Positions 7,601 to 64,000 of a DNA stretch of 64,000 bases are shown here, piece after piece. The DNA lies in contig KZ538384.1 of NCBI GenBank assembly GCA_000934665.2, positions 1 through 64,000 of the forward strand, written 5' to 3'. The translations under genes and the position numbers were made by a program. This DNA comes from Catajapyx aquilonaris (Eukaryota). How positions within the stretch are numbered: position 1 is the stretch's first letter; every line of letters starts with the position of its first letter. The notes under the pieces are model-generated. The model did no database searches. It was not told where the DNA came from and saw only the letters and a list, made by a program, of their open reading frames with translations.

Positions 7601-8006
7601 GGGTGGTGGAAGAGGTGCAGGGTTTTGGGAGCTTGTGCCGAGGGTAGATGGGGGGGGTATGGGTGGTGACGACATCGACATCGACGACGAGGATCAGGGC
7701 GACGAGGGTAGACCTCGAGGCGCCTGCGCCACCAGCATCAGCATCAGCAGCAGTATCAGCAGCAGCAGCGTCTGCCCACAGCAGCAGACCAAAGAACAGG
7801 GAGGAAATCAGCTGCTCTTCACACACAAAAAAAGACAACAACAACAACAATAAGTGGTAGCTGAAGGGTGCGGCACGGTTACCCCCACCAGAAAAAAGTG
7901 CGGGTTATTTTAACTTTTTTTTTGAGGAATCTTCGGGAGGTCTGCAGAAAGGGGAGGTGCGGTTGGCCCTCCCGACGGCCCCCATGTTGGTCCCGGGGCA
8001 GACACC

Positions 8007-17000: not shown

Positions 17001-20000
17001 CATGCAGTGTGGGATGTTTGCCAACCACACCACTTTAACAGCAGTGGTGCTGAAATAATTATTTTGTTTACTTGCTACTTGTGCCTGTTGATATAAAAGC
17101 AACAATTAGAACTACCTTCACTTTTTATGTCTAGGAGACCGAAAGAGACAGATAATTATTATATGGATGCGGTTCTGTTTCTTTGTTTTTGCTTCGGTCG
17201 GTGAATAGTTGGCAAACGTTCTGTGCACTACATCAATATGCAGCTTATATTAATAATCAGGCTCACGTGCTTCCGCGAAAAGAATGGATACCGAAGAAAA
17301 AGTGCTTGAATTACCCACATAATCTAGGTGTATAAATGTAACGTTGAATTTTCAAGCAAATGCCACTTTATATTGTGTCTACACTCGTAAGCTACTTGTC
17401 GGTTCAATACATAGTGAAGGACCCACTCACGTCAGTCGCAAAGGGTCGAAGAATTTCTTTGTACTGTAACGGAAAAGGGCCATGGCCTTTCAGCCATCAA
17501 AGAGTGCAGAGTATACAGTAACCGCGTTGCCATTCGCATGAAGGAGAGTACACAGTACCATAATATGTTTAAAAAATATTTATGCCACGTTATCCTGGCG
17601 CGATGCAACCATCAGCATTCGCCCATGAAGTGAAGCGAAGGGGAAAAACCACTTTCAATTTTTCATGATGGTTGCATATAGCCAGGATATGTTGGGCAAT
17701 AAATACGTAGAGTATATTGTATGCTATATTATTGCTTTGAAGCAGATTACGATTAACGTATTTAAAAAAATTAACAATATCCCTATCGGCAAGCGAAATG
17801 ATTGGAACTATTTGAATACATATATTCCGCCTACTTTCGTCACAGTAATCCCATGCAAGCTGTCAAACAACGCCCACATCCTTGCAATGCTGATCAAAAC
17901 TTTCTAATATCATAATATGTTAATTCCACTTCTCGTGCAACTCACAACATTCAGAACACGCCTACAATTATTCCATATTGCAGTATATACTGTATACGCT
18001 TGTATGAGGCACAATTTGGCAATTATTATGCTATCCAACAATTTGAAGCCTAAAATAATGTGCAAAATATGATTCCAAAGAGTTCTTCCTGGAATCCATG
18101 CTTGACGTAGCATTTTATCTGGAAAAAATTCTGCCTATCTAGAAAGCTCGCGATTTCTGTCCGCAATTCGGGCCTTTAGCCGTGAGTGGGGTTTCGCCTT
18201 GTGGGATTGACTGCCACTTCTTCTATCTCCTGTCCCATCAGATGAAATATCGGTAATCGACTGTATTGCGGATACTGCCTCGGGCTGTACACTCACCTCA
18301 AACTGCGTCATCTTTTTTTGTGTATCCAACACTCTACAATATATTTTTATTTCGACTGCTTTGCATCCACTCGTGCATGGACCCGGCAGAGTGATTCCCA
18401 TTTACATTGATTTGCCATTTTAGCAGTCAACAGTACAAAACCCAACACTAATGCAGGGACCTGCTTGCATAACCTAGTTGCACATTAAAAAATACCGGGC
18501 TTAAGGAAAAAAAGAACAAATATCGATATTGTAATTAACCGGTCAGTGAACTGCGGATGGAAACGGGCATAAGAGGAATGTTCCTGGGAAGCTGCAAACT
18601 GGTCTCTGCCCTGAGGTTTGTGCGCACCAGCGCCTCTTCCCATTTATTTCACACTTTCTCCCAGAGCTTAGTGCTATACAACTCTACTTCAACAGTGAGG
18701 TTAGCTACTGAAGTTGGAGAGGAAAAAAATCCAAAAAGAAGAAGGAAAAAAAACCGCATTTTCGCATCGTAAATTGCATGAGATCCGACCACGCACTAAA
18801 AGCAACACACAAAAATATAGGTGTCACTTACAACGTCCTGGCACCAGGTTTCTGGCTTTAGCCTTCAGTGCTTCTTCTGATGAGTAATTTATGGGCGGTT
18901 ATGGGCGTCTCCGAGAAGCAGCACCTCCGCCAGCTCTTAAGAAAATTACCTCGAACATCAAGACTTTTCGCCCCAGCATATCATTAGTTGATAACCCGTT
19001 CCAGGAGCAACATATCAACCCACTTGTGTCATTTTTCACATCTTATCAGCTTAGCTGGTAGAACCGGAACTGTACCGCTTATAGATCATGTCACTGCAAT
19101 CCTACTTTAGATGCGGCCCGGTCTGCCGAGATGATGGGTTGTCTAAGGGCGTGAATAAGAGATAATAAACTGTGGAATGGCGAACACTTTCATGCTTTGT
19201 TATAGTTTACGTTTGTTTTACTTCCTAAATGGGTTAAAGTAGTTACATTTCACTCTTAATGCAGGGGTAGTGATGGTTCAGTATAAAAACTTAAGCAGGG
19301 AAACCGGATTAAAACTCTCACTTCCGGTTGCAATTTGCTTGTTTACACACACGCAAATCGAGCAATCTTATTTCTCATAGATATGGCAAACAATTCAACA
19401 TTAAAGTCAGATATCAACTTCACATAGAATTTCATAGTGTACATATGGGGTTATCCACTAGGGTTCTGGCTACATTAGCATCAATGCAAATTGACAAATC
19501 TGCACAAACGTTGCAATTTAGTGTACAAAATTATGACTGAATGCGGATAATAAATCTTTCTGTTATTTGACCAAAATGTTAAATATGTCCCATTATTTCG
19601 CTCGTATAGAGTTTGTTTCAGTTATTATTTATGCAAAGTTCTTCAGTCTGTAAAACTCACATTCATGAAACGAATACCAGTTCATAAAGTAGTCTCTATT
19701 TTGGAATATTCCATTCTTGCTGCATGTGCGTACTCTGCATGAGCATAGTAAGCGCCAGGACTGTACTGTGCAAGTACACGTTTTGCACAATTTTGTGCTC
19801 ATCGTACTGTAAAATTATTAACTACTCTTCATGCACATAATTCCCAACACATTTGATCCTCGCAAGTGGCTGCATTAGCAATTCAGGCACCACTTTCTCA
19901 TCTGATTTACATATGCCAACGCTACAGTAAGCGGTCAACTCTCGTACATCAGAAACTTGTGCATAAGCAAATCGCTTGAAGGCGATCAAAAACTATAGGA

Positions 20001-32000: not shown

Positions 32001-35000
32001 GCAGCCGGTGAGTCGCGGTTTTTGCAGGGGGGATGTTTTTGATGTCGCGGACTAGTCACACACCACGGATGCCGGATTTGGGTTTCTGACGATTTGCAAA
32101 AAACTGGGGCTATTCAAATGGCACGTTTTTTTGTTTTTTTTTGCAGCGTTCCTGCCCAATAAAGTTACTTTATATATGGAAGGGGGTAGTTTCCATCTTC
32201 TCAGTCCTGGTTACTGTACCGAGTCATTCATCGTGGTTGCTTACAGCAGCTTTAACACACTAACAAGTAAGTGCTCAGCGAAAAGCAGAGTCAGGATGAA
32301 TAATTGAGCAAAGCATCCTGTATTTTCAACTGGCGGAGTAGGTATGGTTTTGTATGTAGCGGAGCGAACATGAAGTAGATAATTATTAACTGGGGGAACT
32401 CCAACATTGCCATACAATTGGAATATACACTACATGAGAGCACACAATATAACAGCATGTGGGTGAACATCAACGATCAACAAAACAACAATGATTATTA
32501 TTAATTTATTATCTTCATCATTGAAGGACTAAGACCATATTTTCTCCTTATACTGCATCGGCCTGATTATTTTAAAGCAGGTATACTACTCTTGATTAAT
32601 GGTTCTCGCAAGGCGATAATGTTAAGTTAATTGGACCATATTATACGCATGAAAAGGGTGTAAAAATGAGTTCTATTCATGACATTCGTTGGCACTTGTT
32701 CCAATCAAAAATTCCTTGAAATTCAAAAATTGGAGAAATGATTCAATTTGGTCACTGCAATAAGCAGGGTAGTGCCAAACCAACTCTAACCATTCTACGG
32801 ACGTTTCAACTGGAACACACTGTACATAGCTAAACAGCAGTGCTACTTTTAACGAGGTTGCTCACTGTAAATGGACGCAAAGTTTTTTTTTGTATGCAGG
32901 CCTACAGTAGAAGTGGTGCAATGTGTACAAAAAGTGCAAACTGTATAATCCCTTGTGTAGAAGCGTGGGAGTTGATTGCACTTTTGCAGAAATTCTACAA
33001 AATATGGTAACGTTTCGTAACTCCCCTTAGCCTGCGATATAATGAAAAGGTCAAAGGTAGATTAAAATGTCTTTGGAAAATGTCAACCGCCTTCATCTAT
33101 ATTGTGAAAGGTTTCGGAGACTGGCACTGTTGCAATATAAGCGGCGCAGCATTCAAACGGCAAGCTGTTTCGCATATCAAATTCGATCAGTTCCAACCCG
33201 CAAAACATTTCTCGTAATAATAACTTGCAGACAAACGCTCCTCAAAATCTATTCACAACTTTGAGAAATTAATCTACACCGAAAATTATTCTGGTAAAAC
33301 TCGTCATGCTATATAATGTAATGAGTGTTTTCTTCTTTGCAGGACAAGCTCCTTACAAAACTCGACGAGCACGAGCCTGAAGTAGCAACATGTCAGGAAG
33401 ACGAGGTATGGTATAAGATAGACAGTTTTTGTCATGCCAACACACTTCGCCACTTAAAGGGCATCAATAAGTAATGAGGACGCAATCTGTCCGACACCAC
33501 CAGGAAAGGCCCAGAGGGAAACTCCTTCCTGGCTCTTATCTCTTTCCACACCCACACACTAACATCAAGATAATCTTGCTTATAGGTACCGGTATCATTA
33601 AAAAATCTTGTCCAAATTATCATACACTAGTAATGCCATTGTTAGCCTGACTGCGAGTGAGCAGTGAGGACTCACTGCCTATATGTAAAATATCATACAA
33701 ATATTGGTACAAGTTTCAGTCCTCACAGAGATGAAAACTAACCCGTCCCTTCTCCCTTTATGCCACACACACACACACACACACACACACGCTCCAACCA
33801 ACCAACCCATGTTATATTGATTTTGCCGTCATTATTGCGCATTGCCTTGCTTGCCCCAGCCTCAGCAGCCACTTGCCAAAGCGTCTTCTTGGCCTGGGTT
33901 TGTAACAATTTTGCATGCTTCCGGAAGCATCGGTATTTATCTTCTCCTCCTCATCAATGTTCATTGCATAACCCATCCCTAACTTTCTCACAACAGGTGC
34001 AAATCAAACCGACCTTCTCGCATGTAAACGACCTTTCCATTATCCACATTAACGACACGACAAGAACTGCACACAAGTTCTCAAAAAAATGATATTGGCA
34101 CTAACATAATTTGCATACCTTCGCTGCCAATCACTGCACGAACAGGCTGGGCTAATGGCAGTCTCCAATTTAAAATAATTTTCAACAAAATTACAATTTT
34201 TCTAGATGCGACGCAAACATTTTGCCTACTTGAACACCGCGGCATCTTTCCAACGAGCCATTACCTAATACTACTATAGCATCGCATACCCTCCCATTCC
34301 TAGCCCCTTCAATTTTCATCTCCGGTTTCGCGATTGGGGGCTACATTACGAGACCTTTAGAGATGGGCTTCGGATTTGGCCGTAAAATACCTCTAAAGGC
34401 AGAACTGCTGCAATGCAGATCGGGAATGGTGGACAATAAGGTTTCACTACTTCATTCTGGCGAGGGTGCGAATAAGTCAGGTTAGACCACAAAGTCCAGC
34501 CATAACGAGAGGTCGGCCCCAAACGGCCACTTCCATCAATTTAATTGCTGGCACAAATTGTGTCCTTGTATGTTTCCTATTGTTGCAGTGCGTGATCTGC
34601 GTGAATGCCAAAGCCACTATGCAAACGTTCCCTTGCGGTCACCGGGTGGTGTGCCGCAAGTGCTTCGTGAAGACGATCCAGGTGGCCGTGTCTCAGCGGC
34701 TTCTGCCCCTGAGATGTGTGATCTGCCGGGCCAAGATCCTCCGGCTGAAGCAGACGCTGCCTTGTTCAGCCTCAGAATACTCGCTGGGAATGAGCTCCAG
34801 CGCTTCCGCACCAGCCTTCCCAGTTGCACAGTCCGCATCCCTCTACTCCATGGCCTCGGCCTCCTCCGCCATTTCAGGTCAGTCACAACTTAATTATAAT
34901 TATAGCATTGAATAGCCATGACTTTGCCCCTTCACGCGTTGACTCATCACCAAGGTGCATGTAGTTACCATACTGACCCCTTGGAGCGGGAGTGTGCAGA

Positions 35001-41400: not shown

Positions 41401-42879
41401 TGCTATTAATCGAACTGTCATTCTGAATTTTGCTAAATATTAATTTTTGAGCACTCGCATTAATCTAAACGCACCATTGTCGCGACACTTTCTGAGCACA
41501 ATTTATCTAATGTCCGGTCATCATTAGCCGCACAAGATAACTCTGCTGGTATGCAGTACACTCGGCATTTGGCTATCCTCAACGCGCTAATAACAATGAA
41601 CTAAGGACCCGATCGACAATAATGTTGCAAATTGGCTTAACCATATTACAATGACAACACATGATGAATGAACAAGCTGTAACCCAATTGCTGAAATAGT
41701 ATTTTGTTCAGAATATTCTGCGCCACCATAAATATTATTAAATGCCATTTAAGACCAGGACATCTCCTTTACTAAGCTGCAGCTTTAAAAAGAATGTGTG
41801 CATAAAAATGAGGTCTTCCTACATTTACATAACTAATGAACTGGGACTTGGTTGGTCACTTGGATGTCGTTAAATCCAAATCTCCCCCCTTTTTTCTTCA
41901 CTCCTTCCTATCTCTGTCTCTGTCTCATCTTCACCACAATGATGTCGCCAAAAAATAATACACTCTTTTTCTATCGAATGCACAGGTGTTTCCAACGGTC
42001 TAGACAACAAAGCCTTCAATAATTATCTACCGTAGATTCTCCAAAGAGCAATATTTACGAATCCATGTTGCCCGAGTGCTCACACTTTCAGTATTAAATT
42101 TCTCATGGCTGCTCTTGATTGTTGAAAAGAATTTGCATATTTTCATTCCGTAATGTCGTCAGGAATATGCTCAACAGTTAGGAAACAAAATCTTGTCTTC
42201 GTGTCAATGTAGTGGTGTAGGACTCAATTCCCAATGCTGTTCTCTTCTCGGATCAAATCGGGAGCTTTGAAACGAAGCCCGTATTCGCGAAAACTCATGC
42301 TGATGATTAACACTTTTGGTCGCGAATGCAATTTAAAACAAATAAAATGTGATTAGATGCAGTAACCTCAAATGTTTTCGCTTGAAAGTGAACCCGTCAT
42401 ATCAGATTGCCAGCTCGTATGGTTTAGCTCTAATTTTTCTGACATCAATGTCGTATATTTGATTTAGAGTTTTCACTGTTCTTCCGCTGTACGAAGTGAA
42501 AATGATTATTAATTTGCAATAATTACACGAAAGGCATTGAGACGATATTTATAAAAAAAACACCGGTTCTAACCAACGTGCGTTTCATGCCCGAATCATT
42601 GACTCAGAATAATGTTCTTGATATAAGATAAAAACAATTTTGAAACAAAAACCACGTACTCTCAACTATATTGGAAACTTTATTATTAAAGACAATCGAT
42701 CTCAGAATAACAATAACCAGAGTATAATAATTGGAAACATATATAATATGACTGTTAGCGATTAAAACTATCTATGACCATCAATATTTTCTAGCAAATA
42801 ATCAATGTACTATATACTCCGTTAATATGCTCATTTAATTACGTACATCCCTGAGTCTGCATGTCATTGCTTGATCATC

Positions 42880-42946
<67 letters not shown>
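42880..42946. repeat. (TAT)n microsatellite
   Basis: About 22 perfect trinucleotide units. Confidence 0.95.
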
Positions 42947-45836
42947 GAATATGTGCATATCGCCACTTTGATTTCTACCAAATAATAAGCTAAGCTTCTA
43001 CCATATTATTTAAAGAAAATGTCCCTACAATTAACTTTGAGGCCTTAGTTTTAAGCAGATATCCTTATCATCATTACGGCTTGTAAATATTTGTCACATA
43101 ATTTGGGGGTGTACATAACACTTTTGGTAACGAGCTTACTGAAGCCCTGCAACAAAACGGAAAAAAAGCCCACTGCAAATGTCCACCAAAACCAAACACA
43201 GTCGGATAGCTCTCGGCTCTATTTTTAAAAATAAAGCAGCGAATCCCATTAGATTTGAAATGTTTCAAGCCGCGACAAATGGGGACAGAAACCACCAATC
43301 AATATGGAAATGATACTGATTACTCCCCCATGGCTGTGCACAGTGGTCACTAATTGACCTTGATAAATGAGCCAGTTTCCGGTTAGGAAAAAAAAAGCAC
43401 ATCGAAAAGGCATTAGTTGCATTTCAAGCATAGGCGGCTTCCATTATTAATATCAATATTTTCGGTTACCTGACTGTTTCGAGTATACCCAAATTTTAAT
43501 AGGTGCTGCAAACGTGATTTGTCATCGGTGACGATCATTGAGACGATGCAGAGAAAAATGTACATGAAAAATAAAACCCTCGTTTTGTCGTGATCGTCGC
43601 ATTTGTCGTCACTGCCAATAATTTTTAGTGTCCCATCGTGGGGACCATTTGTAGAGCCCATGAAGTAGCGTTCATATATTTTATGAAGTGTAGTGTACAG
43701 CATAGCCAGAAGCGTGTTCGCTTATTTTAACCGAAGAAGGGTGTAATATGTAAGGGAGAGAAAGAGAGAGGGAGAGAGAGAGAAAAGGAAAGAGTCGATG
43801 TCGTTTTTAGTTGTTAGGAAATAGGGTGAGAGAAAGAGAGAGAATGTGTGGTGGAAATTTCGCAGTGATGATGTGTGTGGAAGATTTTTTTTGCAAAAAG
43901 TATAGGGATCTTGTTACACACTTACAAGATGCATTTATCCATCCTTTTAACAATTGTTCAAATAGGTTGGTCTCATCGCAATGCGGTTTTTTTTAAAGAA
44001 TCGAATTGTTACTCAACCAAGATTTATGTCAGTGTTTAAAAAAAATAATAGGCAAAGTCAGGCTGTCCTTTTCACTTGAACTGGTGTCTAATAGTTTTGG
44101 GTGTCAACCGACTCGATAATGCAATTTTTCAAGTTACATTGCGGTCGTCATGATTACACTGACGAAAATACAATTGCAAGGAGTTAGCTGATAATATTAT
44201 CCAAAACTAACTGTGTGCTATTCATGTGAAAACGAAGTAAACATCACAATTACAGCATGACGGTCAATCAGTTATTTTTTCGTCGATTAAACAACACTCG
44301 CTAAAAACATGCCATATCTGAACAGGTCAACTGAAAGCGATGGAAATAACAACGTCGTCTTGTATTAAAAATAAATAAATAAATAAATAAAAAGAGTCGA
44401 AGCTCCATGTTTCCCCAGGAGTGAAAATTCCTATGCAAGTTTTACCAAGTTGGTTCAAATGTCTGCTACCACCTACCGTGGTCCTATTTTTTAACCTTTC
44501 CGGCCAGGTAGATGACCTCAATTCCCAAATGCCACTTGTTTCAATGTGCCAATCCAAACCTTTGCTCCCAATTGGTTTCAAATGTACGGTTTGACCAAAA
44601 AAAAAAAGGAAGAGAGGCCACAAACAACCCCCCTAAAAAAATTGTAAGCGCAATATGATTTATGGTAGGAAACAGTGTCAATCAACACAATATAATGTAA
44701 TGCAGTATATAATACTTTTTAGTGTTGTAAATATACTGGAAAATTTTTACCCGTCTGCGTATGGCACGAAAAGTTACATACCGGTACATACTAAAAATAG
44801 ACATGGTGTTATGAGTGATGATGGTTCAGCCAATAAACAAGTCCCCAGAGAGAATATTCATCTTCATTGCACGTTGTCTTACAGAATAGCATACACAATA
44901 GGTCAGGTCACCTACCTGTGGGCTTCCTGTAAGGCCGGTGCCCCCAACTGACTGGATGTGGACTGGATCGTCGACATGTAGAGGAAAGAGGAAGGGAGGC
45001 ACAGGAAGTGCAGCACTGACCCTTGGACTGAGTGAATGGTATGAAATGAAAGGGACACCTGCTTCCCTCCAAAAATGGCTGGCACGTGATTTGTCACGGT
45101 TGGAAATAAGAATTGTGGTCACTGCACCGCGGCCACAAATTTTTCTTATATAAGAAAGGGTCAAAGATATACAGACGATTCTTCTTGTAAACAGGGACGT
45201 TAATAATTATTATGCATAAGATCATGTGAATGTGGAAAAAAAAATACAGAGGAGGTACCATATATATGAAAATACAGGGAATGTAATGGATTGTCTTCAT
45301 CACATTGTCCTTTGGTATGATCCAATAGCATGAAACACGAATTCAATATACGTAAACTTAATACGAAAAAATAAATTTTGTAATTTTTTAGACATTTGAG
45401 ATCCGACTTGATTCATCGACTGCACTGCTGAATGTGCGAAGGAACATGCAAATTCCAAGGAAACCAGCACAAACATGGACAGAACCAATCAAACCTCTTT
45501 CCACATAAGAAAATAATTTATTTGATCCAAGGATCAAACATGGGACCTCAGAGGTGGAAGCATGCTGTACTGTACTTGCCCAATATGAAGTGAACAACTG
45601 TAGGCTACATGTAGAGTGCGTATGTGATCAAAACAGTACAAGAACACAAAAAATTAAACCCCAAACATTATGCCACAGCCACAATTTTTATTCTCACAGC
45701 TATAGCTCTCGACTCCAAAAAAATAACAATAAGATTACAGCACATCTACACCAGGTGGGCGGTGCCTAACATTTTTCTACATTTGGTGAGAGGGTTGTGA
45801 GCAGCTGGAGCCCCCTCCCCCTGCCCATTCGATGGA

Positions 45837-48800
45837 CTAGTACTTGGATTGCTTCTGCTTGAGGACAGCCTGGACACACTTCGCCATTGTTGGAGAGGCC
45901 CGACTGATGCTGTCTGTCATATAGAAATCCTCTAGGGCTTGGATTTTAGGAGTAAGGGGGTCTTTTGCCATTGTTGCCTTCACAGTCTGCAACGGAAATT
46001 ATTAAAAAAACGACAATGACGATAACATACATTTAAAAAATATATGCAAGTAATAACTGTACCTGACTAATCTGAGAACCCTGTGCAAAAAAGTTAGCCT
46101 CTTCAGCTTCCCCAAAGCGTGTTAAGCTAGGTGCCACTTCAGACATTCTCTGCCTGACCTCTTGCAATGTGTCGCAGGGCAGGGTCTGCCCCAGAATCTC
46201 AGACAAGGCCCTGATAATTTTCCAGTCCTCTCTGGCCATTCCAGGGGGAGTGACCGCCACATGCGTCTCCTGGGCCCTCCCTTCCACATTCACATACGTC
46301 GCCTGCTTCTCTGTGTAAGCTGCTCCAGGGAAGATGACATCCGCCATGGCAGCTCCCCTGTCTCCATGGTGTCCCTGGTAAATCACAAAGCAGTCCTTGG
46401 GGAGGTCTTCGCGGGTCACTGCTCCTTCATCAGCTCCCAGGAGGTACAGGACCTGAGGAGAGCCTGACCGAACTGCCTCGACCCCAGGGGTGTAGCCAAG
46501 GTCAAGGGCTGCTACTTGCGAGGCCACACGATGGAGGACGTTAAGCACTTTCCATTCAGGACCAGCCTGTAGATCAGAGAAGGATTAATGTTATTTTCAG
46601 TCTGTAAATGGTGGTTGCACTTCCGCGCGTCCATTCTATGAAAGTGCAAAAATCAAGTGGTGTATGACAATTTGCCTCTCACTTAATATATGCACACTAT
46701 AATTTATAATTGACATATACACAGGGACCTGAGTCAACCTGAGCAAAATTAACAAGGACCTTACAGCAGCAAATCAGCACAGAATTTCATATTCATTATC
46801 TACAAACCATTAATATATTACTTACCCCACATTTGGCCCTAACTGAATCTGCCAGCTTCTGCACAGATGCTAGCAATGCAGGAGCATCAGCCCTCTGCAG
46901 GGTGACAGAACCAACCACAATGGCTGGCTTCTTTGCACCTGCCAGAGCCTTTGCAAATTCGTGCTGTCCACTGGCAATCTGTTCCACTACGTCTGGTGAG
47001 TCACCAAGGTGTTCATAGTCGTAGGTGAGGTCAACAGGGGCTCCAACGAGGCCCACCCTCAGCTCACTCTGAATCCAGGCTTTGCGCACCCTAGCATTGA
47101 ACAGGGGGGCTTCAAACCTCGGATTCGTGCCAATAAAGAGGATGACGTCGGCCTCCTCCACGCCTGCTATGCCTGTGTTGAGGAGGTAATTAGAGCGAAG
47201 GTCGGTGCTGCCTGGGAACAGCTCTTCCGTGCAGGTGGCCTCTGACCCCAAGCGGTTGAGCAGGTCCTTCAGTGCGATGAGGGCTTCTGCATCAGCCATT
47301 CCACCAGCTACCACAGCAGTTTTGGGTCCAGCTGCCTTTATGGCCTTGGCTGCAGCCAGGAGAGCATCCTCCCATTCGACAGGGATCAGCTCTCCAGACG
47401 CATTCTTCAGCATGGGTGTTATCAGACGCTGTCGCTTAAGACCATCACAGGCGAAACGGGTCTTGTCACTGATCCACTCTTCATTGATCTCCTGCAAAAG
47501 GCATTTCCTTACTAAGAACACTTCATTGTGACGGCATTCTTACTGTACCTCATTGACCCTGGGCAGTATCCTGAGAACCTCGCCAGTCCTAGTGGTGACA
47601 ACTATATTGCTCCCAACAGCATCCAGTACATCAATACTCTCTGTGCTACGGGTTTCCCAAGGTCTGGCCATAAATGCATATGGTTTTGATGTCAATGCAC
47701 CAACAGGGCAGAGGTCGATCACATTTCCACTCAGCTCGGACATAATCATCTTCTCCACATACGTCCCCACCTGCATGTCAGACCCCCTCCCTGTGGTGCC
47801 CATATCGTCAAGTCCAGCAACCTCTGACGCAAATCGGATGCAGCGAGTGCAGTGGATGCAACGGGTCATAATAGTCTTAATCAGAGGACCAATATTCTTG
47901 TCTTCAACAGCACGCTTCCCAGAGAAGGCAATGTCGGTGAAGCGAGATCGATCACTCCCAAAGGCCATGGACTGGTCCTGCAGGTCACACTCTCCACCCT
48001 GGTCGCAAATGGGGCAGTCCAAGGGATGGTTGACCAGCAAAAACTCCATCACACCCTCTCGTGCCTTGCGAGTTAAGTCTGAGTTTGTCTTGATACGCCA
48101 ACCCTTCATTACCGGCATCGCGCAGGCTGCAACAGGCTGTAAACAAGGCAAAGATAATGACCTGCAATGTGATAATCTGGCAAAAAATACATACATACAG
48201 TATACAGTAGAACCTTGTACTTCGAACACCCCTAAATTCGAACATTCCAGAGTTCGAACGATGTTTCTAAGTTTGAATTATAAGCGCAATGAACAATGCG
48301 CTTGCTGCGTGAATGCCATCTGTTGTTTGCCCAAGTCGACTCTAACTCTCACTGTGAAAGCATCTCTTACGTTACACTCGTGGGTTTTCTATGCATTTAT
48401 CGCTGTATTTCTTGGTAGGTTTGGTAATACTATACTGTGTAATGGAAGGTGACTCTGCTTTCAATAACTTTTCTTTTCCTGTCCAACTTCCTCTCCACCA
48501 GCCCCACACGTCATCATCACTCCTCACGTGTACCGTAATTGCAATTTTCATGTTATTACACAGTATTTACATATTTTATTTCTTGTTTTAATTTATGATT
48601 TATGGCATATAACCTGTTATGTTTACCTTAAATTATGCATATTTAATGTTTAAGTTGATCAAAATGGGTATTGCTTAATAGGGTCTGGGAATTTATTAAG
48701 TCCAGGGATGGAAAAAGAACCGCTTCTTTGGGCGGTAAGCGGTTCTTTTTCTATCCCTGCACATGGAAAAAAGAAGCGCTTCTTGGAAGGAAGCGGTACT

Positions 48801-49346
48801 TTTTCCATCCCTGATTAAGTCACTTTCCATTATTTCTTATGGGAAATATTGATTAAGAATTTGAACAATTGGGAGTTCAAGCGACGTCCGGGAACAAATT
48901 AAGTTCGAAGTATGAGGCACCACTGTATAATGTTTCTCAGTGCATTTTGGCCCCCAACAAATTATTAATCAATTTATTTTATTATTAATGATGATGATCC
49001 ATCCCCTCACCTTTGCTGACTTCTCAACCTCAACGAGGCACATTCTGCAGTTCCCTGCAACTGAGAGACGCTCATGGTAGCAGAAACGCGGGATCTCGAC
49101 TCCAACCAACGCCGCAGCCTGCCAACAAACCGCAATGTTAACCTTTTCCTTTTTACCTGCACCAATAATTGCCTTTAGCATAGAACATGACTGCACCTGC
49201 AGCACTGTGGTTCCTGGCTCGACCATGACCGGCTTGTCATCTATGAAGACCTCTATCTTCTCCGGCGCCTGGGTCGACATCACCCGAGCCCCATTGCGGC
49301 TCCAGATGGGCCTGGTCAGAAGCCGTGTGGCCGGGGCCCTCAGCAT
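45837..49346 (-). CDS. NDUFS1: NADH:ubiquinone oxidoreductase 75 kDa Fe-S subunit, mitochondrial (721 aa, 6 exons)
   Basis: Exons 49346-49197, 49118-49011, 48136-47549, 47491-46826, 46566-46063, 45986-45837, all phase 0. Arg-rich presequence [12 protein letters not shown]; Fe-S motifs [37 protein letters not shown]...CPVGAL; C-terminal [24 protein letters not shown] on the minus strand at about 45687-45692. Confidence 0.97.
48205..48925. mobile_element. pogo/Tigger-like (Tc1-mariner superfamily) non-autonomous element in NDUFS1 intron 2
   Basis: Flanked by TA on both sides. Imperfect TIRs CAGTAGAACCTTGTACTTCGAAC (left) versus CAGTGGTGCCTCATACTTCGAAC (right, reverse complement), 17/23 identical. 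Subterminal TTCGAAC repeats. No transposase ORF. Confidence 0.7.
48703..48813. mobile_element. 111-bp hAT-superfamily miniature element
   Basis: 24-bp TIRs CAGGGATGGAAAAAG(A/T)ACCGCTTC with one mismatch, resembling the Ac/Ds terminus CAGGGATGAAA. Perfect 8-bp TSD ATTAAGTC at 48695-48702 and 48814-48821. Confidence 0.85.
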
Positions 49347-49953
49347 CTTCACCACAATACCTATCCTGTACACAACACATGTCAATTAACACCTCATCTT
49401 GAAACATATGTAAGGCGCTCTAATTAATTTACATTGCTTTTCAATGGGTCTGTTTTTTTTAGGATTCCTGTCAATTTCCGTGCATGACAATCTGGTCCGA
49501 ATCTGTGTGGGGGCGACCTAGTGTCGATGGAACTCGCAGGATTTGGAAGCAGACGTGCCTGGCCAAAGTTGGAAAATTCCCAATATTCGGAACAAACAAT
49601 CTGAAAAAAAAATCAGTCCACCATTACAGTCGGTGCAACAGTGTTGCAAGATGCAGCAAAGATTATCTAATGGTCGTACGACTCTATTTAAGCAACATAT
49701 TTAAGCTTGTTCATTTGAAATATACTCATAAAATAATTTTATAGTCCATATTGTGGCATTAAATTGTAAAACATGTTCGTTATTATGTGGCCTGGAATTT
49801 TGCCAAATTTATCAAATCGCTAATTTAACGATAGGAAGAATACTAACAGGATAAGTTACATTTGAAAAAAATTATTGCCATCATTTTTATCATTAACTAT
49901 TTTTGGTTATGGAAATGACCCGGTGCCATTCCCCACCTGGCAACCTTGCCCAG

Positions 49954-49975
49954 TCCCTCTTTCCTCTTCCTTTTT
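49954..49975 (+). promoter_or_regulatory. Polypyrimidine tract, probable TCT initiator / 5'TOP start of eEF1B
   Basis: TCCCTCTTTCCTCTTCCTTTTT lies 70-95 bp upstream of the eEF1B ATG. Translation elongation factor mRNAs are established TOP mRNAs. Confidence 0.6.
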
Positions 49976-50047
49976 GGGAACGTGTGTAATCCAGGCCGGA
50001 TCGCAGCTCTTCTGTACCTCAAAAACACGTTGCATTTAACTTCAGCC

Positions 50048-51177
50048 ATGGTGAACTTCGGCGACCTGAGCACCGAGGCGGGACTCAAGGCCCTCAACAA
50101 CCACCTGGGTGACAACAGCTACGTGGAAGGGTAATTGTCACAGATAAATGGACATTCTCATAAGCACCGCCCACTTTTTCGGGCCGGCAGCCAATCAGAA
50201 ACGGGCATTACAGCACTTATGTACTGCACACATGGTTTACACTTATTGCCAATATTTAATTAGTGTTAATGAATTATGGGTTTTCAGAGTGCAGGCATCT
50301 CAGGCGGATACCACTACTTTCGATGCCATCAAGTCAACCCCTTCGTCTGACCTGTGTCATGCTCATCGCTGGTACAAGCACATTCAGTCTTTCGGGGACG
50401 GCAGGAAGAAGTTTCCAGGAACTCCGTCCGATGCTGGGGCATCTGGGAATGGGAAGGCTGCTGCAGATGATGACGACGATGTCGACCTCTTCGGTTCAGA
50501 TGAGGTCAGATTTGTAGTGTCATCACTTGTGACAGTTAAAATAATGTGTGTTGTCTTCCCAGGAGGATACCGATTCTGCAAAGGTTCGTGAACAGCGCCT
50601 TGCAGAGTATGCGGCAAAAAAAACAAAGAAACCTGGTCCTATTGCCAAGTCCAGCATAGTTCTTGAGGTCAAACCCTGGGATGATGAGACCGACATGAAG
50701 GAGATGGAGTCCAAGGTCCGGTTGGTCGAGACTGACGGACTTGTGTGGGGAGCCTGTGAGTACTGCACCACCTTCACGCTGGCTGTGGTCTTCTCTTTTG
50801 CCATTTACTTCTTATTAGCTCTTCAGCTCTTGTCCTACTCCATTCCTGACTCGGTTTACTTTTCAACAATCATTCTGTTTTTCACTATCGCTCTCATAAT
50901 TACTATCTCCATTGCCTTCATTGCACTGACTTTCCTTACTTAAGACATGCTCAATACTATTCCAGGGTAATTCAAATTGAAACGTGTGCGACATGAAATG
51001 CAATGTTAAATAATTTTTGCAGCAAAGTTGGTTCCAGTCGGCTATGGAATCATGAAGCTGCAGATTATGTGCACTGTTGAGGACGAGAAAGTTTCAGTTG
51101 ACTGGCTCACAGAGGAGATCCAGAACTTTGAGGACCACGTGCAGTCTGTCGACATTGCAGCTTTCAACAAGGTGTAA
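50048..51177 (+). CDS. EEF1B2: Translation elongation factor 1-beta (eEF1B-alpha), 215 aa, 4 exons
   Basis: Exons 50048-50130, 50288-50504, 50563-50755, 51023-51177 (phases 2,0,1). N-terminal FGDL...[13 protein letters not shown]...RWYKHI, acidic [16 protein letters not shown] domain [19 protein letters not shown]...[21 protein letters not shown]...[12 protein letters not shown]. Confidence 0.96.
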
Positions 51178-51514
51178 ATGAAGCTGAACATTGTGCCAGA
51201 ATGTTGTTAAAAAGATAATTTGAAAAAAGAATCATGGATAACAACAAAAAATACATGACAAACATTTCTACCTTTGGAGTTTGCTGGTCTTTAACTGCCC
51301 CATGCCCTTTTTTTCATTTTCAGATTTTGCAGCATTGCTTGAGTGGGTACACAGGGTGTTCCAATAGTTGTAGTTGTACCAATGATAAGGAACAATTGAT
51401 AGGCCCTAGTTCAACATTTCTGTAACATCTGAAACTAGAGCAGTACAAATATGTAGCCCATGCTAAGTTTGCACAGTTTTTCTCTCTCTTTTCTCTCTTT
51501 TTTTTGTGGGGGGG

Positions 51515-51545
51515 NNNNNNNNNNNNNNNNNNNNNNNNNNNNNNN
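51515..51545. other. Assembly gap (N run) within poly-G
   Basis: Run of n flanked by G runs. Confidence 0.95.
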
Positions 51546-53085
51546 GAGGGGGGGGGGGTGTCCAGGCATCCTCTTCATACCTCTAACCACATGAAAACGA
51601 GTGGAAAAAATTAACTAGTCAGAATGATTCCACCCAATATTAGTCCAGATACATGCAGTCCTATCCCCATTTGACTAGTTTTTGTATGGTGGGAGAAACA
51701 TTACATACAGAGTGGCTCCCAAAATAGATGCGAATGACAGGTTTATACCCCAAGGCCCCTGACATTACTGTCATGTCCATTATTGTAGTTAATTGTTAGA
51801 ATAATTTACATTTCACACTGCCTCCCAAGCTGCTTTAGAAACATAACTTGCTGGCGTATTGACGAGTGGTTGAATGGTTTGAAAAGTGAATCCGGTTGTG
51901 TAGTTCCTTGTGAGATTTGCACCACCAAACTTTTCAGATTAGCTGGAAATCCAGCAGCCCACTTCCACAGGAAACATCGATAGTGAGCATCATCAATGAG
52001 TGAGTAAGGAAGGAAGCTGTGGCAATCCATGGAATCAGGTAACACCACAGAATCCTACACAGTTATTGCCACCTTTGGAGATTGAACCGAGAACTCCCAA
52101 ATGACTGCCTGAATTACTAGAAAACTATCTTGAGAGAGGGTAATTAAAAATGTGATAAGTTTTACCCTTCAACCATCTTACCATTCATCCCTTTGGCCTG
52201 CCTCACAGTGAAATGGATCAACTTCTCCGGTATGCATGACCTTCCAAGCATCGCAGTCAATTCGCACCCATTTCACCATCCACACTGTGAACAAGTGTTG
52301 AAGGATTCCGCCACTTCCTTTTCAGCGGGAGACCTGCCAGAATCAGGGCCATTGAGACCACGGAGATTACCCGAATCACTCAGTCGTTGATCAACAAGTA
52401 CCGGCTGCCTTCTCGAAAAACGATTTTGGTGTACCCTACCCTAGTTAAGCGAGTGTCAAATGCATACCACAGCTGACTATCACACGTTTCGTGTAAGGGA
52501 GAATGGGTACAGTATAGTCATATCCTGAATGATGGATGACCCTCTGCACTGCTAAGTCGCGCAGGATTGCTCTGATAAACAAATGTCTCTTGAACCTTCT
52601 GCAATAATAACCGTTCCTATATGTAATTAATGTAAACGCAGCATTACAGGCTCTCACTAAGTCCAATAATTACATGCTCCACCTTGTGAGTTGAAGCCAC
52701 GAAAATGTAATAGTCGTACGATAATGACGAACCGGTCTTCATACGCGCAAATCGCGTCATTTAGAGCTCGTGCACCAATGCGTGATATGCCAGACAACAA
52801 TCCATGTGGAACAAACGAGTCTAAGAAACCCTAGGAAGGGTGACGTCATGCCCTCCACACTGATTTGAGAAGGTGATGAGCACGCAGGAAAAAGGCTCGA
52901 CTGGTTGGTTCCATGAAAGGAGAAGAGGGCGGGATCCGGCTTATTTTATTCCACCCCTGCCCACTCTTTCCGGAACGAAGGACCCCCTCACTCCAACATA
53001 CATTATATACCAGACCCTACACACATATATGCCAGTCCACACTCGGATCCGGACACACACGCCGCTCCTCTTCAGAAGACCAGCC

Positions 53086-57754: not shown

Positions 57755-58566
57755 ATGCATTTGCTAGTGGATCAAGGTGCAATAATAGTGCTGCTTTTCA
57801 TTTCAAAGGCATGTAAGTAAATTAACACAAATCCTGTGAAGATCATAATATCAACATATTCTCCTAAGCAGCATCCCAGCAGAAGAAAGTTATATCAGAT
57901 GTAAGTGATTACTGTTTACAATGCATTGCAAGGGCTAGCAACACCGAGAATAACAACAATTGTTTTGTGGATGAAGACTCGGGAGAAACATGTGGCATCC
58001 ATGGAGTAACTTATGATTTTTGGAAAGATGCTGGAAACTTCACAGTGGACGGCTCTCAGTCTTCAGGATCAAGAGAAGGTATCATACAAAATGGTTACCA
58101 GTCTCATCCATTCCAAATGGTTAGTCACACTTGCACGTTAGATTTCAGAAATTGTGGCCTGGCCAGTGAGTGCTCCGCAAAAACGGTCCGTGCATACATG
58201 GGACAATTCTACAGGGTAGGTGAATTTCAATGGTGACCAATAATGCGCAGAAGCTATTACAACAAACGATTTGGCAATTGTGCACCACTTTATCCAAGTA
58301 GTCTATGATTCTACACACTGCTTGCCTGAACATTAACTGACTGTCACGTGAATGTCATGAAGCTCTTGTTTGACATTTTCTAGGACTGCAACGGTGACGG
58401 GATGGTCACATGCGAGGATTTTGACCGTATACACTACAAAGGGCCCCACAGCTGCATTGGAGATGATTATGAAGACACGTCACACTACTTCACCTTCATT
58501 CACTGTTTAAATGAGGTTCCTCTTATCTGCAGTGATGTTGATTACTGTATCTCCCAGGAAGTTTAG
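57755..58566 (+). CDS. Divergent i-type lysozyme-like secreted protein C, ~174 aa, 4 exons
   Basis: Exons 57755-57812, 57869 (or 57872, NAGNAG acceptor)-58078, 58142-58215, 58384-58566. Same intron phases (1,1,0) and the same 74-nt third exon as A and B. Motifs CLQCIARAS, CGIHGVTYDFWKDAG, CSAKTVRAYMGQF, DCNGDGMVTCEDFDRIHYKGPHSC. Confidence 0.85.
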
Positions 58567-58694: not shown

Positions 58695-61600
58695 TCAAAG
58701 TTGCACTCTACCTTCTCCTCTCATCATGGCCTGCTCTGCCAAGGGTACCCTCTCTTCCAGTCTTCTGGCCTCCTCTGCACCTAACTTGGACTTGTTTTTA
58801 AGTAAGAAATGATGCATGAAAAGCTTGAGTCCCTCTCTCATCATGCGCAAATTGGACGAGTGAGAAGCTCTCAGGAACACTTCTTTGCAGGTGTCCTCAG
58901 ACTCGTGCAAGAGGATTCCCAACATGATCTGCCTCAAGAAGCGGACCATTGTTTTGCTTATCTCTGCAAACTGGATTACCTAGAAACAGGAAAAAAATGA
59001 TGTTGCAATTATATTTATATCAACTCAGATCCATGCAAATTGAAACACTAACCTTAAGTACAGACAGAGGCAGTGCCTTTTCAACAAACAGGTGAGTCAA
59101 GAGATGCCCCAAGTTGGAGCGCTGATTAGGGCTGATGCTGTCCATTTCTTTTAGTTTGTCCCATAAACTGAATTGAAGTGTCAGCTGAAATTGCAGAAAA
59201 TCGAATTCCAAAATAATGACTAATATTGTTTTTACAACTACAGAATTTTGCATTCCCTTGAAAATGCAACCACCTAATTACAAACACCTAATCAGATTCA
59301 AATTAGGTTTCAGAATATCACAAACACCCAGGCATAATGAAGAAGTTGGTAACCAGTTGTTCTGTTTATGCCATATGCAATACAGACAAGCCAGGTGGGT
59401 GTTAGACACGAACTGCTAATGCCTACTTTGCCATTAATCTTTTAGTAGGTCAATATCCTAAGTTTTTCATTTCTGTTGCAACCATAAATACTAAATCCTT
59501 GATTATTTTCTAAGTGTATTCCTTACCTGATATTTTCGATCTGATGTACAAAACTGCTGTGCTAGGAATGAGTAATATGGGTTACTTGTCTTCTCCTGCA
59601 AGCAGCAATCTAATATGACATGTATGATCGCTCTTTCCTGCTCATTTTTCAATCCAAGCCGCAGGAGTTTTTCAAAAGCATCCATGTAATCTTCAGCTGA
59701 CATTATAATGCAGAAAATGTTTTTTCTTGCATCAGTATTCATCCTCTGTTGCCTGGCCAACTCCATAAGTTTCTGGTCTTCCTTGGCCACCTTCTTCTCC
59801 CCTTCCTTTGACTTCTGTATCCCACTCTCGGCTGATTCCCCAGGAAGCATACCTGTCCACGCCGACCCAACTATCCACCATCGGCCTCGCTCACTGGCTT
59901 TGACCAAGTCAGCAAGACTTATCTTCAGCTGGCTAACATAACACCCTTTGCGCACAAACTGCTTCATAAGCTTCTTCAAGTGTTCCACATATGTGGGGTC
60001 ATAGTTTGGGATCTTATGCATGTTGTTGTTCTTGATGGCAGACAGGATGTCCAGAAGGAAGCGGACACGAGACCTGTAACATAAATTCATGCTTCACTGA
60101 ATTTCTCAAAATACAATTATAATTCTCATGCCATATTACTCTTAGTATATTTTTAGCTCATACGTGCAGATAGTTCCCATTTTTAAACTTTTAACATTAA
60201 TGAACTTTTCAGATCCTAACCCCATCATAAAACTGGGGCTATCAGAATAAATATTTCAGTACTGACTTCTACAGTACATGCATATCATTTGTCAGTCAAC
60301 ATACTTGTCTTCTGTGTCTGTAATTGTGCCAGCCTTCTGTTGGAGTTGAAGAATTGTTTCCTTCAGAGTCACAGCATCGTCTTTCCTCAGACAAAACCCA
60401 ACACTCCTCAGCACCAAGAGGATCAAGTCCAGATCCTTCTCCCCAAAACGCTCGCCCAACTTCTTTAGTATGTCAAACACCAGGCAGCTGTGCACTACCC
60501 CAAAGTTATACACATGGCAGAGAAGAAGAATAATGCTGTCAAGATCTCGTGCTCCTTTGTTGTCCGTATCAGTACTCCACTGCTTATCAAGCTCCTCAGC
60601 AACAGTCTGAAGAAAATGTGCACCTGAAACATGCCATTTTCGTCAGTTTCAAAACTGTAGCTTAATTTAACATGTGACTCACCAATTTCGCTTCCAACAT
60701 TCGCATGGAGAATGGCAACAAGCAGTGCGTGCTCAATTATGAACCTCTCAGGTGTAAAAACTGGATTCACAAGATCCAACATCAATCCTGTCAAAAGGGT
60801 GTTCATCATGTTCTGGCTGTGTTCACGATACAATTCTTCCACCTGCAACATTAACGTAATTCAGTCTTTACATTCGTGACGGCTGGCTAAATACTAAAAC
60901 CAATGCCTTACCTGAACTGCAATGCTGTGCATGTTGCTTTCAGACATCCTGTTTAACAGGCCTCGTAAATTTTGCTGCAATTTCCTGGTCTCCTCCATCT
61001 TCTTGGCATCTGGTGTTGCCGGCAGGTTGCGTTTGGCAGGGGGAACATAAGCACCTCCAGCAGACATTGATGACTTAATAACATTTCCATCTTTGTCTCG
61101 GAGACGTCCATAAATATCCTCCCAGGCGGAACTATTTTCAGCAGTTTCTGAGTCTGAAGCACTATCTTGCTCATCATCATCACTGCTGGTCTTTCGCTTC
61201 ACTCCTTTACTGGCTTCTGATTTCTCCTCTTCCTCAGACATTTTGGTTTCCTCTGCAGCCTCATCCTCAAACCGAACTCGTTTCTTTGGCTTCGTTAATT
61301 TTGCTGGAGGCTCAGCCACATGTTCATCCTCTCCATCTTCATCTTCATCACTTCCAATATTATCATCATCTGTACTTTCACTATCTTCGTCATCCTCATC
61401 ATTCTCCATGTTGTCATCCTCATCACTCACAACGTCTTCATCACTTTCCGGCATATCTGAGAAATCCTCATCTTAAAATAAGTACAAAAGAAAACTTAAC
61501 TACATATTATACCTCAGTGGAAAACCTTGTAAGGGTTGGAAAGCCTATTTCAAAAAACACTATTAATCCAGTGTTGATATGTCTTGTTGATGCCTTTCTA

Positions 61601-63054
61601 GTCTCTATGAGTTTCATGAAAATCACTGCCTCTCTAGCAATAAGTTATCGCAGAATTCAAGCGAGAGCTATCACTGATTTATGCTAACTGGCATAACTGA
61701 TTTGTTTAATTCTAATCGAAAATTGCAGATATGATCCAAAGCCCTCTTTCCTCTTCAAGATGAGGTTTCACAAAGTACCCAAATTATTGCAGGATTCTAA
61801 TACAATAAATGCTTTTGAAGCAGGATTATAAGAGTGTCCCAGCTCCCAGGGATATGTTAAGGTCAAAATTGGTCAAGAAAAATGGTGAGTTATGAAAGTG
61901 ATTTCATTGAAAATGATGTCTAACTATTACCAGCACTTCGAGAACAATTAAAAATTGTGCAAATGCTAAAACCAACTCGGAAAACTCTTAGACTCATGCA
62001 GATAGCTCACCTTCTTCTTTACACTGTTCTTTATTCTTCACATCTCCCTTTGTAGCCTTCATATCCCCCACATCATCCTCAAAGTCCGAGTCACTTGCAT
62101 CCTCACCCCATCCTGGTGCAGCAGCAATGTCTTTCATCCTTTCTGAATCACAAGCTTCAAGTAGAACTTATGAGATAGTTAAGGCAAAAAGAATATATTA
62201 ATGTAATAAGCTTAATTGTGAAACACATGGTACTTTGAAGGGTTAGTAGTTTACAGTAGTCTAAATTGATTTAAAAGTGTTGCGGCTAGCTTATGTTTTT
62301 TTTTTTTTTTGAGAATATGATTCTCTGGATTGGAAATTGCACACTAATTGTACACTCTTTACAGCTATTAACCTCCATAAAAAGGATACAGTCAAGTCCA
62401 TCAAACGCAAATGATTTGGGAATAGTGTTCTTCTTCTTCCGTTTGTTGAGATGAAGTTTCTTTTCCAGCTGCTTGATAACCTTGTCCTCATCCTTGTTTT
62501 CCTTTCTCATCATCTTCAGTCTCTGAACAGTCATCTCTTCCTCCAGCTTCTTCCTCTTCTTCTCTTCCTTCTCTTTCTCCATCTTTTGCTCTTCCATAAT
62601 AGTCAAATTCTTCTTCTCTTTGACCTCCACCTTCTTGTTCTTTTTCTTCTTCTTCTTCGGCTCACTCTCTGGGCTCTTCTTTGCATCCTTCTGTACCTGC
62701 ATAATATTAAAAATTGTACCGATTGCTCCACATTTACCACGCCTATTGTAACGCTGGATGCACCTGCTCCGTCGGCTGTTTGAGAGTGGACTTCTCAGGC
62801 TGCTTGTCTCCCGCAGGATCCTCTGTTGTTCCCAGCCCCAGCACCCTGGTCCTCCTCTGCACGTAGCTGTCGTTGATGGCCACCTTCCTCATCTTCCTCT
62901 TCTCCTTCCTCAGCTCCTTCCTGGTCTTGGGCCTCTTCCCGAAGCATCCCCTCGCCTGCTGCTGCTGCCGCCTTCCCTTGCCCTTCCTGGCCTGCTCACC
63001 TTTCTTCCTCTTCTCCCCAATCTCCAGAGAGTACGGTCCAACCTTCACCTTCAT
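58695..63054 (-). CDS. NOM1: Nucleolar MIF4G domain-containing protein 1 (MIF4G + MA3; Sgd1 homologue), ~918 aa, 9 exons
   Basis: Exons 63054-62764, 62696-62390, 62166-62011, 61471-60912, 60842-60683, 60623-60305, 60073-59527, 59184-59053, 58979-58695 with consistent phases. Motifs KSFAFDGLD, WEDIYGR, YVPP, LRGLLNRMSE, RVRFLLD, GRWWIVGSAW, ARQQRMNTD.RK.IFC.IMS.EDY.DAFEKL, QFSLWD. The start could alternatively be the in-frame ATG at 63207. Confidence 0.9.
62167..62389 (-). other. U12-type (minor spliceosome) GT-AG intron, NOM1 intron 2
   Basis: 5' splice site GTATCCTTTT; branch sequence TTTTGCCTTAAC (GCCTTAAC at 62185-62178) ending 11 nt before the exon boundary; no polypyrimidine tract after the branch site. 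Splicing restores the frame DGLD-F-LLEAC. Confidence 0.9.
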
Positions 63055-64000
63055 CTCAAACACGACAGAGGAACTTCCAAGTGTTAATCGAACCAAGAGC
63101 ACATGCCATTTACTTGGGAATGGGAAACGTGACTCAAATGGCTTCTCTCCGGTTGAACTTTCAAGTGGCCGAGAGTTGGCGCCACCTGAGTCGCACTGTG
63201 CTGCCATCTGCTCTCATTGCATTAAATTTACATAATAGTAAAAATAATAATTAAAAATAATTCGGCAAGAAAAAAAAGTAGCCATACAATAAAAAAAGGG
63301 GTATGAAAATATAATAACAAAATCATTTTGTACATTTTTAATGTGATATTAGAATGTTTTCACATGCTTTCAGACATTTCCATTAAATCTTACTTTTTTT
63401 TTTTTTTAAGACTTGGAAATGCAAATGTTTTGTACATAAAAGAAGGACCGGGGGAAAACGTCAGCATACAAACAAAAAAATTTAAATTGAGAGTCACAGC
63501 TAGCAAAATACTTTGGACATGTTCACACGACTTATTATTCACACACATTTGTTATCATGGCATGCTTTCATTTTTTTTCCCCCCTTGCTGCTGAACATTT
63601 CCCAATTAGCACCTCGTTGCAATCTGGGGCAAGATTGCTTACAGAAGTGGGGGGTAAAAGAACAAATTCAACTGTAAACTAAACACTTACAAATTCAAAG
63701 TTAACCCTCGGTAAACTTATTCAAAATAATACTACCGTTAACTATTGCAACAGTTGGTAGTAAAATGTTAAGATCCCCTTTCCAAAAAAAAAAAAAAGTG
63801 CTAAAATGCTGCAAGGCTTCTTCTTCTAGAAAGGGTACATGGGGAGCGGCAGATAAATAAAAGTTTTTGGCTTGTTATTGCCATTTTAAAAATATTGTGG
63901 GTGATTCCTCTAACTGTCTAGGTGATCTGTTCTGTCCAGAGAGTCGAGTGTGTCACTTGAACTGGAATGAGTCAAGTCACACAACTCATCCAGATGCTTC

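Follow-up and report, generated by a model that had tools for sequence, protein, structure and literature searches.

A hydrophobic read-through frame in the last coding intron of an eEF1B-alpha gene is probably a by-product of pyrimidine-rich sequence

Introduction

Greasy read-through is a known property of U-rich non-coding sequence, and a 2023 Nature paper on 'noncoding translation mitigation' reportedly extends the clearance of hydrophobic tails to retained introns. Sequence of this kind reads as hydrophobic, often transmembrane (TM)-like peptides, and the C-terminal extensions that result are captured by BAG6/RNF126 and degraded, with GCN1 also taking part in the clearance, as described in the part of PMC10364623 that deals with readthrough. 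Thymine bias has likewise been held sufficient for a reservoir of TM-like peptides, in the part of Vakirlis et al. 2020 (PMC7005711) that concerns TM-first emergence. Within the eEF1B complex itself, exon 5 of mammalian EEF1D binds KTN1/RRBP1 and thereby places the ER anchoring of the complex under the control of splicing, according to the part of PMC13231004 on this exon. A further eEF1B subunit gene gives, through alternative splicing, a second product with another role, eEF1BdeltaL, which is well documented in vertebrates (PMC6176097, the part on this variant).

Here we describe an eEF1B-alpha gene of Catajapyx aquilonaris, within a 64,000-nt stretch of contig KZ538384.1 (hereafter the window), whose exon 3 can be read into the following intron as a long hydrophobic tail. 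As in the readthrough cases of PMC10364623, the frame of an exon passes into non-coding sequence rich in U/T, and the resulting tail is as hydrophobic as a tail anchor; tails of this kind are often predicted to be transmembrane. Those cases, however, concern readthrough into the 3' UTR, in C. elegans and in human cells, with hydrophobicity in all three frames, whereas here the frame is intronic, is known from sequence alone and is hydrophobic in one frame specifically. The locus also resembles the TM-first cases of PMC7005711 in having a T-rich non-genic stretch with membrane-span codons, possible raw material for a young tail; the cases given in that part are yeast ORFs that stand by themselves and come with data on expression and fitness, whereas the eEF1B frame can be entered only via exon 3.

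With EEF1D the locus would share the complex and the idea that splicing sets its ER location. The EEF1D anchor, as the relevant part of PMC13231004 has it, is a protein-protein contact of the delta subunit with exchange activity kept, whereas at this locus a putative intrinsic hairpin would sit on a GEF-dead alpha subunit. The eEF1BdeltaL extension, in the part of PMC6176097 that describes it, is N-terminal and leaves the exchange domain in place, unlike the intron 3 tail. Full-text literature searches showed no membrane-spanning eEF1B-alpha isoform among the results listed, and the idea of a membrane-anchored eEF1B-alpha would be new if true.

Results

The eEF1B-alpha gene and its last coding intron

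The gene model and its translation describe a compact eEF1B-alpha (EF-1 beta) gene on the plus strand, with four exons and a product of 215 aa (Table 1). Its introns measure 157, 58 and 267 nt in order, and intron 3 is the last coding intron. Aligned over its full length, from residue 1-8, with 40 listed EF-1 beta homologues of 209-230 aa, the product shows 60-71% identity; the named homologues among them are mostly arthropods. This full-length similarity, together with the lack of a leucine-zipper N-terminal extension, identifies the host gene as alpha rather than delta. Among the eEF1B proteins listed from databases nothing is nearer than ~71% full-length identity; for exon 3 the best match is 82% in the protein collection and 83% or less among metagenome contigs. 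An EF-1 beta fragment (P0116) is filed under a bacterial species name, an evident contamination of the public record.

Pfam places PF10587 and positions 2-37 of the 88 positions of PF00736 in exon 3; PF10587, the central acidic region, scores 26.4 bits against a cut-off of 25.7. Exon 4 aligns with residues 42-91 of 1B64_A, the solved human domain of 91 residues, and with residues 46-93 of yeast 1F60 chain B. Its penultimate Lys corresponds to the catalytic K205 of yeast.

At the 5' side of the gene, an unbroken 22-nt pyrimidine run occupies 49954-49975 (+), ~73 nt upstream of the ATG, and is a putative counterpart of the 5' terminal oligopyrimidine sites at which translation-factor mRNAs start. 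At the 3' side, an assembly gap at 51515-51545 (31 N between runs of G) begins ~340 nt downstream of the stop codon and makes the 3' end of the gene uncertain; inspection by eye found no AATAAA between 51178 and the gap.

Table 1 Features of the eEF1B-alpha locus and of other genes in the window (slashes mark exon-intron boundaries).
Feature	Position	Strand	Description and basis
Exon 1	50048-50130	+	ATG 50048; donor AGG/GTAATT at 50131; gene model
Exon 2	50288-50504	+	N-terminal domain and acidic linker; gene model, homologue alignment
Exon 3	50563-50755	+	Acidic region and first 36 EF1_GNE profile positions; Pfam
Intron 3	50756-51022	+	267 nt, phase 1; donor CCT/GTGAGT, acceptor tttttgcag
Exon 4	51023-51177	+	Exchange-domain positions 37-88, penultimate Lys; stop 51175-51177
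Read-through frame	50755-50943	+	62 codons and TAA; pyrimidine-rich
Donor-like AGG/GTAATT	50964-50972 (GT at 50967)	+	Same 9-mer as exon-1 donor
Hypothetical 56-nt mini-intron	50967-51022	+	Sequence read; candidate donor only
C3HC4 RING finger ORF	34397-34912	+	PF13920, E 6e-8
Destabilase ORF (invertebrate i-type lysozyme)	57868-58233	+	Pfam, E 2.4e-10
MIF4G and MA3 gene	59506-63213	-	NOM1/Sgd1-like (nucleolar) by domain content; long acidic, K/E-rich exons

A hydrophobic read-through frame and a second donor-like site

The initial annotation had noticed that exon 3, read past its donor, continues without a stop for 62 codons and adds a tail that has two hydrophobic stretches, is devoid of K and R and contains a single E and a single D. 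We indeed observed each of these properties: the frame passes through the split codon at 50755 to the TAA at 50941-50943, giving a product of 226 aa, and both stretches pass the Kyte-Doolittle (KD) 19-residue test. The tail has a mean KD of 1.76, a best 19-residue window of 2.91 and two non-overlapping 19-residue windows at KD 1.6 or above, by which measure it is predicted to be hydrophobic enough for two membrane spans. It has no ATG of its own and is reachable only through exon 3.

Natural membrane spans usually have some of G, M, W, K, R, H and N. All seven are absent from the 59 residues that follow the donor-derived CEY, and the tail thus lacks the basic residues that flank natural spans and differs from them in composition. 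Their absence is what DNA poor in G and A would give. The segment is T 0.42, C 0.29, A 0.18 and G 0.11-0.12, while the rest of the gene's intron sequence has A 0.30, C 0.18, G 0.20 and T 0.32, and its exons have G 0.29. Third-position use in the tail is like that of the gene's exons, but equally like the tail's own overall C/T richness; as the segment is C/T-rich at every one of the three codon positions, the likeness to exons carries no independent weight.

Beyond the stop codon, the 9-mer AGGGTAATT at 50964-50972 repeats the exon-1 donor (50128-50136) letter for letter. As had been pointed out before, the GT of this 9-mer, at 50967, follows the stop by 23 nt, and splicing from it would leave an intron of 56 nt; the accompanying remark that such a length is typical of the locus agrees with real introns of 58 nt (intron 2) and of 78 and ~57 nt (NDUFS1). 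By eye, a GTTAAATAAT-like stretch upstream of the acceptor is common to 50967-51022 and intron 2. The site matches 7/9 consensus positions, as many as the donors of exons 1 and 3, while the other donors checked match 5-6/9; it is a candidate competing donor with both the consensus and a workable intron length. The canonical donor of intron 3 nevertheless matches GTRAGT fully, whereas that at 50967 lacks the +5 G. Another GT that matches at least 7/9 of the donor consensus elsewhere in the intron turns up in 16% of shuffles. The window holds 3 copies of AGGGTAATT against 0.65 expected, a number reached in 2/100 shuffles. The third copy is at 52137-52145 (+), ~1 kb downstream of the eEF1B gene.

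The predicted truncated product

The candidate 226-aa product would keep 36/88 positions of the EF1_GNE exchange domain and would be without exon 4, and hence without profile positions 37-88. The proposal that such a product is GEF-dead is borne out by the anatomy, exon 4 encoding those positions and the counterpart of 1B64 residues 42-91; the product would lack exchange activity because exon 4 is absent from it. The break would fall inside the small exchange domain, which is not a natural module boundary.

The 50-55-nt rule for premature stops and exon junctions comes from vertebrates. At this locus the stop ends at 50943, 23 nt before the candidate junction at 50966, and with intron retention there is no later coding junction, so the candidate isoform does not have the spacing of more than 50-55 nt between stop and following junction that the rule requires. 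By this rule, neither the retained-intron mRNA nor the one spliced at 50967 would be an obvious target of junction-dependent decay, and such mRNAs, if made, may well be translated. The earlier suggestion of an unproductive, NMD-coupled isoform therefore fits poorly.

Hydrophobicity and periodicity compared with chance

We compared the frame with simple nulls, namely dinucleotide shuffles (5000 per set) and mononucleotide shuffles (20000). The frame stays open in 9.4% of the 5000 dinucleotide shuffles of the whole intron interior, in 18.4% of the 5000 of the pyrimidine-rich part only and in 7.5% of the 20000 mononucleotide shuffles, indicating that its openness alone is not beyond chance. Two TM-like windows appear in 7-11% of the dinucleotide shuffles that stay open, and an open frame jointly with two or more TM-like windows in 0.47% of the 20000 mononucleotide shuffles. 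The mean hydrophobicity is harder to reach: shuffles average a KD of 0.61-0.76 (sd 0.3), against the observed 1.76, and 1/5000 in each of two sets attains the observed value. The other two frames of the same DNA have mean KD of 0.60 and 0.64. In 9/20000 shuffles an open frame was combined with a good donor that lay past the stop and left 45 nt or more to the acceptor.

The segment is also 3-periodic in the phase of the exon (base by codon position, chi-square 27.8, p 1e-4). Codon position 2 has T 54%, G 2% and A 8%, and purines fall 28/6/14 on the three codon positions over 59 codons and 13/0/3 in the last third; both outer, hydrophobic thirds share the phase of the exon. Of 21009 windows of 177 nt, 1.9% have a chi-square at least this large, which puts the segment at the 98th percentile of the whole stretch. 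The 16 regions at that level comprise 9 recognised exons, 6 of unknown nature and the read-through segment. Taken together, these results show that, against simple nulls, base composition does not fully explain the hydrophobicity and periodicity. About 8 introns could be placed in the window (3 in eEF1B, about 5 in NDUFS1), too few for an empirical intron null.

The regions with exon-level 3-periodicity (chi-square 28 or more) and no recognised gene lie at 865-1110, 7588-7839, 19717-19893, 42760-43062, 58333-58563 and 61948-62187; that at 865-1110 falls within a 262-codon minus-strand open frame (840-1625) without a Pfam match.

Elsewhere in the window, the only other long and strongly hydrophobic frames, at 61299-61460 and 62415-62783 (+), are stop-free with KD 1.85-1.91. 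Both lie antisense to exons of the minus-strand MIF4G/MA3 gene that are acidic and K/E-rich. These antisense frames are hydrophobic without being genes, so frames of this kind arise in the window without a coding role.

The same exon end in other taxa

The position of intron 3 is old: in other taxa, too, ORFs continue beyond this exon end, which follows WGA. Among the 120 homologues listed, 93 continue normally by pattern and 4 more by eye, 22 read through, and P0090 reads through a short in-frame intron; of these homologues P0090 alone has a TM-like window. The 22 read-through ORFs, apparently called on unspliced DNA, stop after 2-49 residues unlike the tail. Read-through ORFs usually start C-E/K-Y, from the donor consensus. 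In the 80 metagenome loci, 29 lack the anchor motif and are unscored, 35 are normal (24 by pattern, 11 by eye) and 16 read through, the last being 10 distinct sequences of 2-39 residues.

The initial annotation had made retention of the ORF in orthologous introns a test of function. Such retention was not seen: stops interrupt all 22 + 16 read-throughs, which are from distant taxa only. Likeness to the tail was found in none of the 22 + 16, at exon 3 identities of 83% or less. Among about 33 read-throughs from this exon end, none is as long or as hydrophobic as the tail, with its 62 residues and KD of 1.76.

Searches with the tail itself, a low-complexity query of 62 residues, gave 0 matches at E <= 1e-3 among 1.84 billion protein representatives. 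The databases searched held no protein identical or nearly identical to the isoform or its tail, and the tail matches no Pfam family. The Atlas gave no usable match to it, with a recognition of 969 against the 2300 that 91/100 known-family proteins reach.

Other identities of the segment

Several other identities of the segment were considered and rejected. A small RNA (snoRNA etc.) was rejected on the basis of 0 Rfam matches at E <= 1 over 49800-51500 and the lack of a stable fold: the intron RNA folds with z +1.59, and 192/200 shuffles fold at least as well. A mitochondrial insert, gene fragment or transposon was rejected, within the limits of a low-complexity query of 62 residues, in that the segment has no protein homologue, no Pfam match and no other copy in the window; the repeats that flank it are only 9-16-nt matches at chance level. 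Against a tandem or internal duplication, Tandem Repeats Finder reported nothing at score 30, and the two halves of the tail align no better than shuffles, 58% of 1000 of which reach their score. An antisense gene was rejected because no minus-strand frame stays open across the segment, where these frames fall into three separate pieces.

Discussion

It is most likely, with a probability of roughly 0.6, that intron 3 is an ordinary intron and that its open, greasy read-through frame is a by-product of pyrimidine-rich sequence. On this reading a spliceosomal intron occupies a site long conserved in the housekeeping gene for eEF1B-alpha, and its first 190 nt, being pyrimidine-rich and poor in G and A, make stop codons rare. 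Codons rich in T and C would then specify F, L, I, T, S and A, giving the greasy 62-residue extension of the exon 3 frame. The strong GTGAGT donor would ensure that normal splicing takes the frame out, and occasional intron retention, or use of the weaker GTAATT, would yield half an exchange domain with a hydrophobic C-terminus. Such a half-domain product would be of the kind cleared via BAG6/RNF126, not a designed membrane anchor. We infer that no selection acts on the intron frame and that its product, if there is one, would be noise.

The by-product reading rests on the composition of the segment, on the seven residues missing from the tail, on the 9-18% of shuffles that stay open, on the lack of conservation and of any homologue of the tail, on the truncated domain, on the weaker second donor, on the published U-rich precedents and on the antisense hydrophobic frames in the window. 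The hydrophobicity, the 3-periodicity and the donor after the stop count against this reading and are left unexplained by it, and the tail's status as the longest and greasiest read-through and the position in the last intron also count against it.

Those same features keep alive an unlikely alternative, that GTAATT at 50967 or intron retention produces a real, lineage-specific isoform, a GEF-dead protein of 226 aa with a two-span hairpin anchor. Equally unlikely is the role that would go with it, in which the product would keep the eEF1B-gamma-binding N-terminal domain and the acidic region and so anchor part of the complex to, for example, the ER. Hydrophobicity confined to one frame, periodicity like that of an exon and a well-placed donor are what sustain this possibility: the hydrophobicity and the periodicity exceed what composition gives, both hydrophobic thirds are in the phase of the exon, the donor-like site matches the best real donors and its 56-nt intron is like the 57-58-nt ones nearby. 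A stop 23 nt before the junction would let the mRNA escape junction-dependent decay by the 50-55-nt rule, and the splicing-controlled ER anchoring of EEF1B in mammals through EEF1D exon 5 and KTN1, as given in part of PMC13231004, is a precedent. It is difficult to reconcile with such an isoform that the same intron is unconserved in the 22 + 16 read-throughs from other taxa and that the tail has no homologue, that the tail is without flanking K/R and without G, M or W, that the break lies within a small domain and leaves 36/88 positions, that the canonical donor is stronger and that no membrane-anchored eEF1B-alpha emerged from the literature searches. A specific version, quite unlikely in our judgement, is that a young two-span hairpin drawn from the gene's own last intron would make a GEF-dead decoy or scaffold that keeps eEF1B-gamma, and so part of the elongation machinery, at the ER.

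At longer odds, the segment may be a functionless relic: an array of RYY triplets that has decayed, for example, or a piece of coding sequence that came to lie in the intron and by chance is in frame with exon 3. In its last third (50884-50940), 13/19 codons are a purine followed by two pyrimidines, as in a decayed ATY/ACY array, and equal periodicity occurs in 6 regions of the window that lack a recognised gene. Yet Tandem Repeats Finder found nothing at score 30, the halves align no better than shuffles (58%), the window has no second copy, the protein search gave no homologue, and the minus-strand frames are in three pieces. Very improbable is a regulated unproductive isoform, in which a donor switch or retention would cut the output of active eEF1B-alpha and the peptide itself would be irrelevant. 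One acceptor with two competing donors, and an alternative product without an exchange domain, would suit such control; the classical junction-dependent decay signal, however, is absent by the 50-55-nt rule, and intron RNA that is no more structured than shuffles (z +1.59) and belongs to no Rfam family indicates no sensor.

If the membrane-anchored isoform exists, no core subunit of an elongation factor would have been seen before with a membrane anchor of its own. The isoform would then be a clear case of a membrane domain recruited from an intron, would parallel, with an intrinsic anchor, what EEF1D exon 5 and KTN1 do in mammals, and would bear on the ER localisation of translation in animals that may be without the kinectin route. 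If, as we favour, the frame is a by-product of pyrimidine-rich sequence, the locus is a caution that pyrimidine-rich introns can closely mimic TM coding sequence, including codon periodicity and a downstream donor, and that isoforms are not to be called from sequence alone.

Neighbouring genes in the window

The Destabilase ORF (Table 1) speaks for an invertebrate origin of the window. Apart from the RING ORF (Table 1), none of the ORFs with at least 90 codons in the window's first 45 kb had a Pfam match. The gene for NDUFS1, the 75-kDa subunit of complex I, occupies 45840-49346 (-), head to head with eEF1B-alpha. Its introns include one of 844 nt (48177-49020), one of 78 nt (49119-49196) and a mini-intron of about 57 nt near 47489-47545, the last estimated from a 19-codon alignment gap; it also has a coding exon of roughly 600 nt or more. 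One NDUFS1 record (P0121) is flagged UNVERIFIED_CONTAM, evidently contamination of the public record. The ATG of NDUFS1 at 49346 and that of eEF1B at 50048 are ~700 bp apart (intergenic 49347-50047), a spacing which suggests that the two genes share a bidirectional promoter region.
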